Assembly (NCBI GenBank): GCA_965219455.1
Contig: OZ244744.1
Span: 1,344,001-1,408,000, forward strand
Reading direction: 5' to 3'
Length of the DNA stretch: 64,000 bases
Source: Candidatus Latescibacterota bacterium
Lineage (GTDB): Bacteria > Latescibacterota > UBA2968 > GCA-2709665
This document shows positions 30,684-59,607 of this stretch, in pieces. The notes under the pieces were generated by a model. That model was not told where the DNA came from, ran no database searches, and saw only the letters and a list, made by a program, of their open reading frames with translations. How positions within the stretch are numbered: the first letter of the stretch is position 1; each line of letters starts with the position of its first letter. The position numbers and the translations under genes are program-made.

Positions 30684-30981
30684 TGGACCGAATGACATAC
30701 GGTTCGGCCCGATCGTGAATGGCTTCGGCTGTGCTTGCCACTACACGTTTCCTCGGGACTGATTTCCGGCGGTAGTTGGGCGGCTGCAACCGCGAACAAC
30801 CCCAGCAAAGCTTGAACGCATCCTATTAATCCGCGCATGGTCTCTCTACGTTCCCCGAACTTCGCGATTGATGCGGGAATATGCTCGTGCCGCACATTGT
30901 ACTTCGAGCATTCTCAGGATACCATTGACTTTCAGGTGTGATCCCGTATTTTTTTTACGCGGAGCCACACCCTCTCTCCCA

Positions 30982-31254
30982 GGGCATCGGGTGCTTGTGC
31001 AATACAAAGTGATCCGGCTGAGTGAACTGGAAGGTCAACGGATTCTCGATGCGGGCCACGCCGGACTGATCGCCTTTACGCCGTTGATGAAGCCGCCGGA
31101 AGGGATGGCTTCCCAGGCATGGTTGCGCCGCTGTATGCACGCGGCTCATGCGCGGCCAATGGCTCAGGCGGAGGTGGCCGACTACCTGGCAGGCATGTCG
31201 TTGCTCAGCGGGCTGGTGTACGCGCCGGAAACCATTTCTGACGTCATTTCGGCG
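30982..31254 (+). pseudogene. Internal fragment of an Rpn/YhgA-like putative transposase
   Basis: VQYKVIRLSELEGQRIL...GLIAFTPLMKPP...WLRRC...LSGLVY; lacks the N-terminal nuclease region and C-terminus. Confidence 0.5.
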
Positions 31255-31456
31255 GAACTGAAACTCCAGAATACGAATCGAACAGAAATACGCTGTAGCG
31301 CACGCACACTCTCGTTCCTTCCTGATACGTCGTTGCCTGGCCATGGGAGGAGGTGCGATCAACGACGGTGCTGTACGTTCCAATTCTCCATCAAGCCTAC
31401 ATTATTGAGGGCGAGAATCATGAAAAGTTACGGCGCTCGATTCCGGATGACTGTAT

Positions 31457-31485
31457 TTGACATCACAACACAGGTTCCATATATT
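31457..31485 (+). promoter_or_regulatory. Consensus sigma70 promoter of sRNA candidate 1
   Basis: TTGACA (31457-31462), 17-nt spacer, TATATT (31480-31485). Confidence 0.7.
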
Positions 31486-31491
31486 CCCGTA

Positions 31492-31611
31492 TAGTGAGGG
31501 CCGCATTCCGTCTCACGGCGCAAAAGCGCTACGGGACAAGAAGGGATGTGCGCCTTCCTGGATAACCGTCGGTTTTCGACTCTGGCAGGTCAGGGAACCG
31601 GCGGTTTTTTT
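31492..31611 (+). ncRNA. Candidate structured small RNA, copy 1 (family unknown)
   Basis: Own promoter; hairpins GTGAGG/TCTCAC and GGCGCA/TGCGCC; terminator AACCGTCGGTT..AACCGGCGGTT + T run; about 87% identical to 32706-32822 by hand alignment. Confidence 0.62.
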
Positions 31612-31802
31612 ATCCGGCCGGGCTGAGCCTTTAGCGACCAATAACCAGGCGCACTCGTCCGGCGTTTGAAATTCGCAACGGCGGAGGGGAAGATAATTCT
31701 GCTCGCGGTACGGTTCGGGCACTCGAAGATGCGGCCTGGAAGAACAAAGCGATCGATTGGAACGGGTCCTTCGGCCGCTGGCCGTACAGCAATCTGTGCC
31801 TG

Positions 31803-31848
31803 AAAACAGAAAACAGGACAATGCACTCACCTGGTGTGTTGTCCTGTT
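31803..31848 (-). terminator. Intrinsic terminator after the receiver-AraC gene
   Basis: AACAGGACAA/TTGTCCTGTT stem followed by a T-rich tract on the minus strand. Confidence 0.55.
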
Positions 31849-31908
31849 CCAATACAAAAACGACCTGATATGCCGTACCTTGACTACTGAATCCGGATCC
31901 GGCAGGTA

Positions 31909-32631
31909 TCAACTCATTTTCTCTCCACGTATACCTATCCGATCCTTCCGAAATTGTCCGGGCGTTAATCCCTCCTGTCTGCGGAAGGCTTCGGAGAATC
32001 GACTCTGGTTCTTGAAGCCGCATTGCGCCGCAATGACGTGCATGCGATCGCCAGTGAATCTGAGCATGTACTTCGCCCTTTCGATCCGGTGATACCGGAG
32101 ACGATTTCGAAAGGAGGTACCCAGACGATCACCAAATTGCAGGGAAACGTAGGCAGGCGAGAAATTGAAATGCCTGCACAGATCCGTTCGACGCAGGGAG
32201 GAGTCGGAGAAATGGTCTTTCAGATACGCGTCCATCCGGTTCACGATCTCGCGCCGAAACGGAATGCGCCGCTCGAGCAGTTCGTGGATCGCGTACATCA
32301 GATCGTCCTTCGTCACCGGTTTGACCAGGAAATCTCGAGCACCGGCCTTCATCGCTCGGACGGCTTTCGTGAGGCAGTCGGTCTCCGACAAAAAGACGAC
32401 GTCGGTGTTTATGGACTCCTGCTGAACGGCTCGCAGAATTTCCAGACCGTTGAGATCCTGCAGAGCGGTGTTCAGGATGGCGATATCGAAGGGTCCGTTA
32501 CGGAGGGACCTTAGCGCGTCTTGACCGTTCAGCGTTGTCCGGACGTACCACGTTTCCGACTCCTGCCGGATGATGTTCTGGAGGCGCACACGAACCCGGC
32601 GGTCGTTGTCCGCGACGAGGAATGCGATCAT
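31909..32631 (-). CDS. Response regulator with atypical receiver and AraC-type HTH
   Basis: FLVADND...DIAILN...AMKAGARDFLVKP receiver; IAAQCGFKNQSRFSEAFRRQEGLTPGQFR AraC signature; start 32631 or 32679. Confidence 0.85.
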   Translation of the reverse strand: MIAFLVADNDRRVRVRLQNIIRQESETWYVRTTLNGQDALRSLRNGPFDIAILNTALQDLNGLEILRAVQQESINTDVVFLSETDCLTKAVRAMKAGARDFLVKPVTKDDLMYAIHELLERRIPFRREIVNRMDAYLKDHFSDSSLRRTDLCRHFNFSPAYVSLQFGDRLGTSFRNRLRYHRIERAKYMLRFTGDRMHVIAAQCGFKNQSRFSEAFRRQEGLTPGQFRKDRIGIRGEKMS

Positions 32632-32672
32632 CCGGTCCGGGTCACGAGACGTTCGATCCTGTATCGCTGCAA

Positions 32673-32701
32673 TTGACATTGAAACAGGCGTTCCATATAT
32701 T
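32673..32701 (+). promoter_or_regulatory. Consensus sigma70 promoter of sRNA candidate 2
   Basis: TTGACA (32673-32678), 17-nt spacer, TATATT (32696-32701). Confidence 0.7.
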
Positions 32702-32705
32702 TATC

Positions 32706-32822
32706 GTGAGGGCCGCATCCTGTCTCACGGCACAAAAGCGCCGAGGGACAAACGGGGTGTGCGCCTTTCTGGATGACCGTCGGTTTTCGACTCTGGCCGG
32801 TCAGGGGACCGACGGTCTTTTC
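32706..32822 (+). ncRNA. Candidate structured small RNA, copy 2 (family unknown)
   Basis: Paralog of 31492-31611; terminator GACCGTCGGT..ACCGACGGTC + TTTT with a compensatory change. Confidence 0.62.
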
Positions 32823-33246
32823 TATCTAATCGTGCTCGTCCGTGAATTACAAAGCCCATTAACGCGGCTTACGTTGCTCGTACTCCATAATGGAATTTAT
32901 CCGACATACAACCGATCCACAGTTGCACCCGCGATAGGTCGTTTGGCGTCGGTTTTAGTCGCCAGCAATTACCCGCCAGTGCCACGGTTCGCTGCCGGTC
33001 GATTACACTGGAGAAATGCTCTTCCAAGTGACTGAAGTTACGGGCCTCTTCAAGTAGGCCCTGGATTCCTGAAGCATCCTGGCCTATATTTACCATAAGA
33101 AGATAATAAATTATTTATGACAAACACGTGACAATAAGCCCATATTTTATGATATTATTGTGATATTGCCCAATGCGGCATGATTGATCGGTTCCGGTCG
33201 GCCCGATGTCTCCTGGCCGTCCGTCTTAGCCGATGGAGGAGAGAAC

Positions 33247-35664
33247 GTGGCGCAAAAAGACGAGCGCGATCGGCAGATATCGGTCCTCCGCGACCGCCTG
33301 CTCAGGCTGAGCGAGGCCAGCCTTCGCATCAACGAAAGCCTGGACTTCGAAACGGTTCTGCAAGGGGTACTGGACAGCGCCAGAGCGTTGACTGACTCAC
33401 GGTACGGCGTCATTACGGTCTTCGAGGCAACAGGAGAAATACAGCACTTCCTTGCCTCGGGGATAACTCTCCATCAGGCGCAGCAATTGTGGCAAATCCC
33501 TGGAGCGATGCAGTTCTTCGGGTTGCTCCGGGAGATTCGAGAGCCGTTGAGGTTGCGCGACTTTCACAGCCACACCCGGTCATTGGGTCTTCCCGAATTC
33601 CGCCCTCCTATGCCCGTCAGCGAAGCGTTGTCCTTTCTGGCATCGCCAGTCCGGCACAGAGGCAAATCTGTGGGCAACATCTACCTTGGCGAGAAGAGTC
33701 GAGGGCGCGAGTACACCGAGGATGACGAATCCACCCTCACGATGTTTGCAGCCCAGGCGGCGCTGGTCATCGGCAACGCGCGGAGCTATCGGGAAGAGCA
33801 ACGCGTCAGGACAAACCTCGAAACACTCATCAACACGTCACCGGTGGGCGTGGTGGTCTTCGACACGATTACTGGAAAGCTGGCGTCATTCAATCGTGAG
33901 GCCGCGAGGATCCTGGAGGGCGTGCGAATCCACGGTCGACACCCTGAAAGACTGCTGGAAGTCATGACGATCCGTCGAGCCGACGGGCGGGAGTTCTCCC
34001 TGCAGGAACTTTCCGTAGACCAGGCTATGAAGCCAGGCGAGACGGTGCGCGCCGAGCAGGTTGAGTTTCGAGTCCCCGATGGAAGGAAAGTAACCGCGCT
34101 GATGAACGCCACGCCCATCCGAACGGATGATGATTGTGTGGAGTCCTTTGTCGTGACCCTACAGGACTTGGCGCCACTGGAGGAACTGGAACGGCTTCGT
34201 GCCGAGTTCCTGGCTATGGTCAGCCACGAACTCCGTGTCCCGCTGACGTCGATCAAGGGCTCGACCACCACCTTGCTCGACGACTCGACTGTCCTCGACC
34301 CCGCCGAAGCGCGACAGTTTTACCGGATCATCGACCACCAAGCCGACCTCATGCGGGACCTGATCAGCGACCTGCTGGACGTCGCGCAGATCGAGACCGG
34401 CTCGCTCTCGGTCGCTCCCAGGCCGACTGACCTGACCGACATCGTCGACCAGGCCAGAAACACGTTCCTGAGCGGCGGGGGCAGGAATAGATTTGAAATC
34501 GACTTCCCGTCGGATCTTCCGTGGGTCATGGCGGACCGGCGCCGCATCGTGCAGGTGTTGAACAATCTCATTGCCAACGCCGCACGATACTCAGAAGCGT
34601 CCTCTGCCATACGGCTAACAGCAGTCCGGGAAGACATTCACGTGGCGATTTCCGTTGCCGATGAAGGCGCGGGGGTTGCCGCGGATCTCCTGCCACACCT
34701 CTTCGGGAAGTTTTCGGGGATCGACACCGTTAACGGCAAGCGCAGGGCTTCTGATACCGGTCTGGGCCTCGCCATCTGCAAGGGAATCGTGGAAGCGCAC
34801 GGAGGACGGGTGTGGGCCGAAAGCGACGGACCCGGCCTGGGCACTACATTAACCTTCACCGTCCCCGTGGCTGAGGAGACCCCTGGCGGCTCGGTCCCGG
34901 AAACCGTCAGTAAGACCGAGCATTCTCGTGATCCTCACCGACCAGGCGACAAGATCCTCGTTGTCGATGACGACCCACAAACGCTGAAGTACGTTCGTGA
35001 CACCCTTACGAGTGCAGGCTACACGCCCATCGTGACCGCGGATCCCGAACAGGTCGCACGTTACATCGCGTCGGACAGACCCCAGTTGGTCCTTCTGGAT
35101 CTGTTGTTGCCCGGCGCTGACGGAATTGAACTGATGGAAGGGATCCTCGAGGTTACCGAAGTGCCGGTGATCTTCCTGTCCGCATACGGTCGCGACGAAA
35201 CTATCGCTCGGGCATTTGAATCGGGCGCAACGGATTATGTGGTCAAACCCTTTTCCCCGACGGAACTCGTCGCTAGAATTAAATCCGCACTAAGAAGGAG
35301 GGAGACCGGCCAGGATCGGGCTGAGCCCGAACGGCCCTACGTGCTTGGGGACCTGACGGTCAACTACGAGGAGCAGCGCGTGACTGTGGCGGGATGCCGC
35401 GTGCAATTGACCGCCGGCGAGTATCACTTACTGTACGAACTCTCGATAAGACCAGGTCGGGTACTGACGTACGAACGACTCTTACGGCGAATCTGGGGCC
35501 TACGGAACGTCAACGATTTTCGTCGAATCCGCACACTCGTCAAGAGGCTGCGACGCAAGCTGGGCGACGACGCCAACGACCCACGTTACATTGTCACGGA
35601 GCACGGTGTCGGATATCGTATGGGCAAGCCTGAAGAGATCCGGGAAGCGTCGTCTCAACCGTAA
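33247..35664 (+). CDS. Hybrid sensor kinase/response regulator: GAF-PAS-HisKA-HATPase-REC-OmpR wHTH
   Basis: GGAGG + GTG; VSHELRVPL, NLIANA, DEGAG, GLGLAI; ILVVDDD, LLDL, VVKPF; LTAGEY...LRRKLGDD..PRYIVTEHGVGYR. Confidence 0.92.
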   Translation: MAQKDERDRQISVLRDRLLRLSEASLRINESLDFETVLQGVLDSARALTDSRYGVITVFEATGEIQHFLASGITLHQAQQLWQIPGAMQFFGLLREIREPLRLRDFHSHTRSLGLPEFRPPMPVSEALSFLASPVRHRGKSVGNIYLGEKSRGREYTEDDESTLTMFAAQAALVIGNARSYREEQRVRTNLETLINTSPVGVVVFDTITGKLASFNREAARILEGVRIHGRHPERLLEVMTIRRADGREFSLQELSVDQAMKPGETVRAEQVEFRVPDGRKVTALMNATPIRTDDDCVESFVVTLQDLAPLEELERLRAEFLAMVSHELRVPLTSIKGSTTTLLDDSTVLDPAEARQFYRIIDHQADLMRDLISDLLDVAQIETGSLSVAPRPTDLTDIVDQARNTFLSGGGRNRFEIDFPSDLPWVMADRRRIVQVLNNLIANAARYSEASSAIRLTAVREDIHVAISVADEGAGVAADLLPHLFGKFSGIDTVNGKRRASDTGLGLAICKGIVEAHGGRVWAESDGPGLGTTLTFTVPVAEETPGGSVPETVSKTEHSRDPHRPGDKILVVDDDPQTLKYVRDTLTSAGYTPIVTADPEQVARYIASDRPQLVLLDLLLPGADGIELMEGILEVTEVPVIFLSAYGRDETIARAFESGATDYVVKPFSPTELVARIKSALRRRETGQDRAEPERPYVLGDLTVNYEEQRVTVAGCRVQLTAGEYHLLYELSIRPGRVLTYERLLRRIWGLRNVNDFRRIRTLVKRLRRKLGDDANDPRYIVTEHGVGYRMGKPEEIREASSQP

Positions 35665-55697: not shown

Positions 55698-55889
55698 TTA
55701 TGCGGCTTTGTTCACGCGGCCGAGCTTTATGCACTTGGTACAGACCTTCATCCTTCTGGGCGTCCCGTCCACCTGCGCGCGCACCCGCCTCAGATTCGGG
55801 TTGAATCGCCGTTTCTTCCGGTTGTTGGCGTGGCTGACGTGATTGCCGACCATCGGCCCTTTCCCGCAAATTTCACATCTGGCTGCCAT
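55698..55889 (-). CDS. rpmB: 50S ribosomal protein L28
   Basis: [33 protein letters not shown]...VCTKCIK. Confidence 0.96.
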
Positions 55890-56023
55890 TTCCAATACCT
55901 CCTGGAACCCTTGATTGATTCTCTCGTGTCTACTTGAAGTTGAAACCGCCCCGCTCTCACGTCCGGGTACGCCATCTGAAAAAACGCGCGACACCACGGT
56001 GACGCATTGATTCGTTCAGGACA

Positions 56024-56051
56024 AATATACCCGTCAACCGACACTTGTCAA
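56024..56051 (-). promoter_or_regulatory. Sigma70 promoter of rpmB
   Basis: Minus strand TTGACA-N16-TATATT. Confidence 0.6.
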
Positions 56052-59356: not shown

Positions 59357-59397
59357 ATCGGCGAGCAGACGGAAAAGCACCGCTGCAGTCAGCGCCG

Positions 59398-59607
59398 GGA
59401 CCTCTCCCCCCGGCCCCCTCGGACAGAGCTATCAGCCGTAAGCTGTCAGCAAAAAACGAAAAGCAAAAGGCAGATTGCCAATACGGTCTGGCGATGCCAA
59501 TCCACAACCGCAGCAGTCAGCGCGGGGACCTCTCCCCCCGGCCCCCTCTCCTAAAGGAAAGGGGGAGGAACACCGGCAAGGCGGGCGACCACAAGGGTCG
59601 CCCCTAC
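59398..59607. repeat. REP cluster between folA and thyA
   Basis: Partial and full GACCTCTCCCCCCGGCCCCCTCTCC copies plus GGGCGACCACAAGGGTCGCCCCTAC. Confidence 0.7.

Follow-up and report, generated by a model that had tools for sequence, protein, structure and literature searches.

The window analysed here (a stretch of 64,000 nucleotides, positions 1,344,001 to 1,408,000 of contig OZ244744.1 from a Candidatus Latescibacterota bacterium) contains a response regulator gene flanked by two similar elements of about 120 nucleotides (nt), with a hybrid sensor kinase gene downstream of the second. The two repeats look like separately promoted and terminated small RNA (sRNA) genes of an undescribed family in Latescibacterota. 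Their parts, in window coordinates, are as follows.

31457..31485, + strand: promoter of copy 1, an exact TTGACA-N17-TATATT scoring 11/12 in the promoter scan.
31491..31613, + strand: sRNA copy 1, about 123 nt, 139.8 bits against covariance model R1; 5' rod hairpin 31496-31557, linker 31558-31563, 3' stem-loop 31564-31606, T-run 31605-31611.
32673..32701, + strand: promoter of copy 2, an exact TTGACA-N17-TATATT scoring 11/12 in the promoter scan.
32703..32824, + strand: sRNA copy 2, about 122 nt, 134 bits against covariance model R1; 5' rod hairpin 32708-32768, 3' stem-loop 32775-32817, tail an interrupted T-run, TCTTTTCT.

A first-pass annotation of the window had described an element of about 120 nt present twice at high identity, and this is borne out. 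The two RNAs are 85% identical over their whole length, and a repeat search returned three co-linear blocks (31434-31485/32650-32701, 73%; 31490-31539/32702-32751, 86%; 31543-31610/32754-32821, 90%). Differences in the 3' stem preserve pairing, as had been stated: the closing A-U pair of copy 1 is G-C in copy 2, columns 79/112 change from U-G to U-A, and columns 84/107 from U-A to U-G. The promoter reported ahead of each copy is exact, and the two sites are the only ones in the window, where 0 are expected from 100 shuffles. Genome-wide, 36 exact sites occur compared with 0 for the reversed control, 7 of them at sRNA copies; TTGACA-N17-TATATT is evidently a strong housekeeping promoter of this organism. 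The rpmB gene (55698-55997, - strand) shares the hexamers as claimed, with a spacer of 16 rather than 17 (TTGACA-N16-TATATT at 56024-56051). Homologues in other genera and on one metagenome contig keep the promoter, with TATATT or TATACT as the -10 box.

At the other end of each element, a long GC-rich stem precedes a tail of seven T (copy 1) or TCTTTTCT (copy 2); in copy 2 a terminator scan places an inner stem at 32798-32811 before the T's. The T-runs are weak and interrupted in several of the copies in this genome. No gene follows copy 1 on the same strand, in agreement with the first-pass annotation; the next gene is the response regulator, on the opposite strand, and the next gene also lies on the opposite strand at the ancestral locus described below. 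The elements therefore have their own promoter and an intrinsic terminator with no co-transcribed gene, as a stand-alone bacterial sRNA gene does.

Both copies fold as a long 5' hairpin, a 3' stem-loop and a U tract, with minimum energies of -65.3 kcal/mol for copy 1 (z -7.4) and -62.5 kcal/mol for copy 2 (z -5.35). The 5' rod is formed by pairing between a CU-rich arm (CCUUC/CCUCU) and a purine-rich arm that resembles a Shine-Dalgarno sequence (GAGGG/GGAGG). A short linker, single-stranded and variable, joins the rod to the 3' stem-loop, which is near-invariant (CCGUCGGUUUUCGACU, a loop, then GGUC(A/C)GGGAACCGRCGG) and runs into a U tract where the transcript ends. In this genome the RNA has a length of about 120 nt, against about 80-105 nt in other genera. 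A short 5' hairpin, GTGAGG/TCTCAC, had been proposed for each copy and did not hold up: over the 12 copies in this genome 78.6% of its cells pair, which 183 of 500 shuffles equal, and it competes with the long hairpin, which both copies form in their minimum-energy folds.

Covariation supports both helices. In an alignment of 41 members (39 distinct) from 12 genomes, fitted to the covariance model, 92.7% of cells are paired, and both sides have changed in 19 of the 28 pairs. None of 500 shuffles reaches any of five measures, and slid controls pair at 33-52%. Compensatory cases include a change from G-C to A-U at locus L076 and from GAC/GUC to AGC/GCU at locus L070. U-G pairs are fixed at two positions (34/39 and 35/39 distinct members), which places the structure on the + strand. 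Because structure-blind alignment of 22 members with MAFFT and RNAalifold recovered only the 17-pair 3' helix, the 5' domains were folded singly. End-to-end hairpins formed in 18 of 19, with z <= -2 in 16 of 19, and their sequences are very different; one further 5' domain contained N and was left out. Conservation of structure through compensatory change, the third property of a stand-alone sRNA gene, is thus found as well.

The window has no Rfam match at the gathering score, as a check suggested by the first-pass annotation had asked. At E<=10 over 31300-33000, the sole match is a chance microRNA match elsewhere, with no CsrB/Rsm and no 6S. The view that these are stand-alone structured sRNA genes with their own promoter and terminator, belonging to no Rfam family, is supported by these results, and the family is very probably a real one kept by selection.

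Rather than the two paralogues first reported, the genome (5.84 Mb, complete in one contig, G000:C1) holds 12 full copies, found by BLAST and covariance models, plus fragments, and the element is conserved across two families of one order. Copies are given below by the start of the BLAST match; RNA starts such as 1375491 or 5327602 name the same loci.

Full copies: 1338891, 1375457, 1376673, 1415323, 3054875, 4759825, 4769089, 4784199, 5087686, 5327568, 5330264 and 5655977.
sRNA fragments: 1671346, 1059196 and 3571564.

Pairwise identity among the full copies ranges from 62 to 99%, and several are clustered locally (1.34-1.42 Mb, 4.76-4.78 Mb and 5.327-5.330 Mb). Among eight representative copies, identity is 0.66-0.89 from -40 to +120 and 0.2-0.5 in the flanks; promoter and RNA are the part retained. 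Upstream of many copies lie decayed remnants of the 5' end of the regulator gene (a translated example is NAAIRNRARRDANRIIEFLVA), and tblastn finds such remnants beside copies 1671347 and 5327568. These remnants indicate that the copies arose by duplication of the regulator-sRNA locus.

Public short-read DNA contigs break exactly at the repeated 3' stem-loop (window 31570-31611 and 32777-32821). A 12-copy repeat explains the breaks at these places and limits short-read assembly of the lineage. The idea that the stem-loop is a CRISPR-like repeat (clustered regularly interspaced short palindromic repeats) was dropped, as BLAST finds it only at sRNA loci and fragments.

Beyond this genome, model R1 has matches in 12 of 22 genomes of the family, and model R2 in 17 of 53 genomes of the order (without G000, 12 of 21 in family f1 and 4 of 31 in family f2). 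In a sample of the phylum, model R2 matches 14 of 151 genomes, all in f1 or f2, and none of the 102 sampled genomes of other families. Within the genus, the RNA is present in 6 of 14 other genomes. A pattern scan of metagenomes added one locus, L103.

In other genera the element is a single, shorter copy with the same promoter in one conserved place, with the order sigma <- -> sRNA -> <- merR <- purH. The loci with this order are listed here.

sigma-sRNA-merR-purH order: L060, L076, L061/L083, L062/L082, L063, L084, L086, L087, L088 and G038 (L114).

The copy in G038 stands in the same arrangement and had been missed by the covariance model. The sigma gene encodes 280-290 amino acids of the sigma-70 family, RpoS/RpoD-like and under the curated cut-offs. 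A MerR-family gene is convergent with the sRNA and is followed by purH. The three protein genes (merR, the sigma gene and purH) run in one direction, so the RNA gene is in antisense orientation within the spacer between merR and the sigma gene. G000 has retained purH and the sigma gene, with neither merR nor the RNA at the ancestral place, and has at least seven paralogues of the sigma-70-family gene. The ancestral gene would accordingly have been single-copy, on the opposite strand between co-directional MerR-like and sigma-70-family genes. In the genus of the window it would have come to stand beside a receiver-AraC regulator, where segmental duplication would have produced the 12 full copies while the regulator copies decayed.

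The neighbouring features in the window are the following.

31909..32631, - strand: response regulator (Pfam Response_reg 2.4e-21, AraC-type HTH_18 1.1e-20).
32632..32672, no strand assigned: shared divergent control region between the regulator start codon and the -35 element of copy 2.
33184..35664, + strand: hybrid sensor kinase, GAF-PAS-HisKA-HATPase-receiver-OmpR-type DNA-binding domain (Pfam, NCBIfam), 360 nt downstream of copy 2.

The regulator open reading frame (ORF) was listed to 32679; its likely start is the ATG at 32631, as orthologues align from residue 2 of the 240-amino-acid form. In alignments, many other copies are preceded by repeats of the region 32632-32672 together with the first ~25 nt of the regulator coding sequence. 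Four other species of the genus (G013, G011, G006 and G012) have the same divergent regulator-sRNA arrangement, with regulators 45-66% identical and 78 nt from the regulator start to the RNA 5' end. The receiver-AraC protein may control the RNA, as the first-pass annotation had suggested. The regulator was considered as a co-occurring partner of the RNA and rejected, being neither necessary nor sufficient: the sRNA-bearing genomes G002 and G014 have no close homologue of it (<=32% identity), and two genomes with homologues of 46-47% identity have no sRNA. The near-consensus promoter also drives the homologues beside the sigma gene, where no such regulator stands. For the kinase, no relative was found in 25 related loci searched, including the four regulator-sRNA loci; these loci hold about 1.5 kb downstream (3 kb for L038). 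The kinase is thus context rather than a demonstrated part of the system. It is a single polypeptide (window 33184-35664) in which a kinase is fused to a complete response regulator.

Several further features lie around the copies or elsewhere in the window. The ORF at 30868-31494 (+ strand) ends inside the copy 1 promoter and shares the motif LLSGLVYAPETIS with ORFs of about 300 amino acids after three other copies (G000:C1:5328216-5329133, 5654625-5655506 and 5330467-5331489). None of these ORFs has a Pfam hit, and their likeness to the Rpn nuclease/transposase-like family is sub-threshold. An Rpn nuclease label for a 305-amino-acid neighbour was rejected, with no Pfam hit and TIGR01784 at 22 bits against a cut-off of 52. 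Another dispersed repeat occurs near several sRNA copies (G000:C1 near 3055165-3055707, 5330467-5331489 and 1413700-1414100) and reads, in one frame, LKKSI.AA.G.CGRITALHSLPESPDSTRS...RPRLQSDFINGLL. At window 59379-59548 a 42-nt sequence is directly repeated, with 95% identity and a distance of 128 nt (ACCGC.GCAGTCAGCGC.GGGACCTCTCCCCCCGGCCCCCTC).

A second, putative promoter faces the RNA gene at many copies. In 8 of the 12 full copies an opposite-strand TTGNAN-N16/17-TATATT lies beyond the sRNA end. Its -10 box stands 67-71 nt from that end, at 70 nt for six of these copies, and among 5000 random 140-nt windows the background is 0.1%. In other genera nothing but the merR gene converges on the homologue, which has no dedicated promoter facing it. 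The stretch between terminator and promoter block is too heterogeneous for confident alignment. An AT-rich block 60-190 nt past the 3' end of copies 1415330, 3054870, 4759825, 4769089, 4784199, 5327602, 5655975 and 5330258 contains the convergent promoter, a palindrome that spans its spacer (in L007 of the perfect type, 16 nt long) and then two tandem direct repeats of about 19 nt, TTTACGTATTTATCTAC / TTTTCCGTATTTATATAC. In the window, a degenerate block lies at about 32885-32960 (copy 2), and copy 1 has none. Further instances of the block, at 1669458, 5591079, 5556363 and 1268602, have no full sRNA with them.

The anatomy, conservation, covariation, copy number and synteny of the elements are shown by these results. 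Taken together, they are probably best explained by an undescribed family of regulatory sRNA genes with the anatomy and history given above. Such an RNA may work without the usual RNA-binding proteins, as Hfq, ProQ and RRM_1 were not found in the complete genome and CsrA (PF02599) gave 0 matches in it, control genomes matching in each search. In the proposed mechanism, the gene would be transcribed from the near-consensus housekeeping promoter and the transcript would fold into rod, linker and 3' stem-loop. The invariant stem-loop would be a recognition module, engaged either by another RNA in a kissing interaction or by a protein. The RNA would act on transcripts that run from the opposite strand through its own gene, namely the sigma leader, the regulator leader and the leaders from convergent promoters, and by similarity it would also act on leaders of its paralogous units. 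As conservation falls on a helix with fixed G-U pairs and not on a seed, and as the gene is repeatedly found opposite a leader, an antisense or recognition-module regulator is favoured. An antisense mechanism in particular is held tentatively, at somewhat less than even chances. We would rank an antisense or recognition-module regulator first, a protein-binding RNA second and a functionless repeat a distant third.

Several observations weigh against this favoured regulator. The convergent promoter is patchy, so that only some of the copies speak for the antisense reading: of 16 related long-type loci just 2 match the strict pattern, and in the window copy 1 has no such promoter and copy 2 a degenerate one. 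The linker and loops differ between genera and hold no conserved single-stranded seed. The 12 copies of this genome, taken alone, covary weakly, with 2 of 38 pairs changed on both sides. The distribution is patchy too, as the RNA was not found in 8 of 14 congeners, including the one-contig genomes G008 and G009, nor with model R2 in 27 of 31 genomes of family f2; in G026, the spacer from merR to the sigma gene measures about 75 nt and contains no RNA gene. An exact 13-nt complement scan of the 12 copies against the genome gave hits at about the chance number, with longest runs of about 16 nt. Finally, public metatranscriptome contigs do not demonstrate a discrete RNA of about 120 nt. Small parts of the stretch are represented in two sponge metatranscriptome runs, with contigs assembled at 31332-31554 and 31624-31803 at low depth (2.5-3.2); the first begins upstream of the promoter, and neither matches the predicted ends. 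Since these contigs show neither ends nor strand, they are no evidence either way on transcription.

Known systems resemble the family in part. Qrr1-5 of Vibrio and LhrC1-5 of Listeria are multicopy sibling sRNAs with their own promoters and intrinsic terminators, and these families keep a conserved single-stranded seed; Qrr needs Hfq. The present family is like them in having several paralogous genes of about 100-120 nt per genome, each with promoter and terminator, some clustered, between unrelated genes. It differs in that the terminator stem-loop is conserved in place of a seed and that no Hfq, ProQ, CsrA or RRM gene was found. Plasmid RNAI and CopA and the type I antitoxins Sok and Sib are cis-encoded antisense stem-loop RNAs, and here too a structured RNA is encoded opposite the leader of a neighbouring gene, with a convergent promoter in 8 of the 12 copies. 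The Sib/Ibs and Ldr/Rdl loci are repeated in their genome, as is the unit of several hundred nt here. Unlike Sok and Sib, the family has no conserved small ORF on the opposite strand, its members in other genera lack a dedicated convergent promoter, and the opposite-strand transcript is a predicted one. A type I toxin-antitoxin system was accordingly rejected as a class: opposite-strand ORFs of at least 18 codons differ in frame and sequence among 11 copies.

A broader form of the antisense reading would make the unit a portable sense/antisense switch, in which a strongly promoted structured RNA gene is coupled to a convergent promoter fixed about 70 nt beyond its end. We regard this as speculative and rather unlikely. 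If true, the convergent promoter would carry a palindromic operator, with tandem direct repeats of about 19 nt upstream. The unit of several hundred nt would have been copied around the genome, placing the gene behind it under a common RNA-based control, and a lineage-specific RNA-binding protein would recognise the 3' stem-loop, in bacteria without detected Hfq, ProQ, CsrA or RRM.

The strongest competitor of the antisense or recognition-module regulator is a protein-binding RNA, acting as decoy or scaffold, in which a lineage-specific protein, possibly sigma-linked, would bind the 3' stem-loop, marked by fixed G-U pairs and a bulge, and the 5' rod would be a variable body. It is credible enough to be weighed, at perhaps one chance among several. 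Conservation is highest in a double-stranded part and not in a single-stranded seed, the ancestral place adjoins a sigma-70-family gene, none of Hfq, ProQ, CsrA or RRM_1 was found, and 6S RNA (RF00013) was not detected in the complete genome, while the RNA of the signal recognition particle was (5042226-5042326). A likeness to 6S RNA, which is a single long rod of about 180 nt with a central bubble, can be seen in the housekeeping promoter, the non-coding nature and the adjoining sigma-70-family gene at the ancestral locus. The present RNA, by contrast, has two hairpins within 80-125 nt and no long rod with a central bubble, is multicopy, has no RF00013 match and is missing in many close relatives, which would be odd for a core regulator of RNA polymerase. 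Moreover, the partner protein is a postulated one, and homologues of the regulator do not track the RNA.

That the elements are a dispersed selfish or neutral repeat, similar to a miniature inverted-repeat transposable element (MITE), or a portable promoter-terminator cassette whose RNA is functionless, is improbable. The 12 full copies with their fragments and varying flanking genes, the patchy occurrence among congeners and the neighbours, which include a Predicted AAA-ATPase gene (PF09820) and ORFs weakly and sub-threshold Rpn-nuclease-like, are what such a repeat might leave. However, the conservation peak falls exactly on promoter and RNA, the copies cluster locally as in segmental duplications, and other genera hold single-copy syntenic orthologues with compensatory changes. 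A MITE or other non-autonomous transposon in the strict sense was rejected: three units share no terminal inverted repeats, and the left edge is not sharp and fades gradually into regulator pseudogene remnants; target-site duplications were not systematically searched.

In a coding or leader function, the element would encode a small peptide (frame M..NRRFST..G.GTGGF through the 3' stem-loop) or act as leader or attenuator of a downstream gene; we consider either highly improbable. An open frame of about 19-26 codons is readable in copy 1 and in L060. Among the 12 copies of this genome, however, the start column holds A, G, T or C before TG, and one-base indels occur at column 87 (one copy), 94 (three copies) and 106 (one copy); in family f2 the helix register shifts with pairing kept. 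Such indels and shifts would break a frame while leaving the pairing in place, which argues against a peptide. A co-directional ORF does lie 90-800 nt downstream of several copies. These downstream genes are mutually unrelated: they include the hybrid kinase, a WD40-like ORF, a Predicted AAA-ATPase (PF09820) and ORFs without a family assignment, one of them long. At the ancestral locus the next gene is convergent. With no consistent co-directional gene downstream, a riboswitch or attenuator leader was rejected.

The weakest alternative, suggested by the first-pass annotation, is an RNA that titrates CsrA/RsmA under control of the AraC regulator and the hybrid kinase, and it is scarcely credible: the size of about 120 nt, the terminator, the nearby two-component genes and the few GGA triplets (four in copy 1 and three in copy 2, as counted earlier) do recall CsrB, RsmY and RsmZ, but no CsrA gene was found in the complete genome, GGA motifs number from 1 to 6 at shifting, unconserved positions among the 41 members and are mostly base-paired in the minimum-energy folds, no CsrB/Rsm family matches even at E<=10, and the kinase has no relative at the 25 related loci.

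The family is new, but of an already known kind of RNA gene. In the part of the literature that our search reached, a query on RNA regulators in Latescibacterota returned only unrelated papers. The family described here is a first well-delimited candidate regulatory RNA for Latescibacterota, with a usable covariance model and a clear ancestral locus near a sigma gene. A terminator stem-loop conserved in place of a seed, in bacteria without detected Hfq, ProQ, CsrA or RRM proteins, points to a mode of RNA-protein or RNA-RNA recognition that is not yet worked out in these bacteria.

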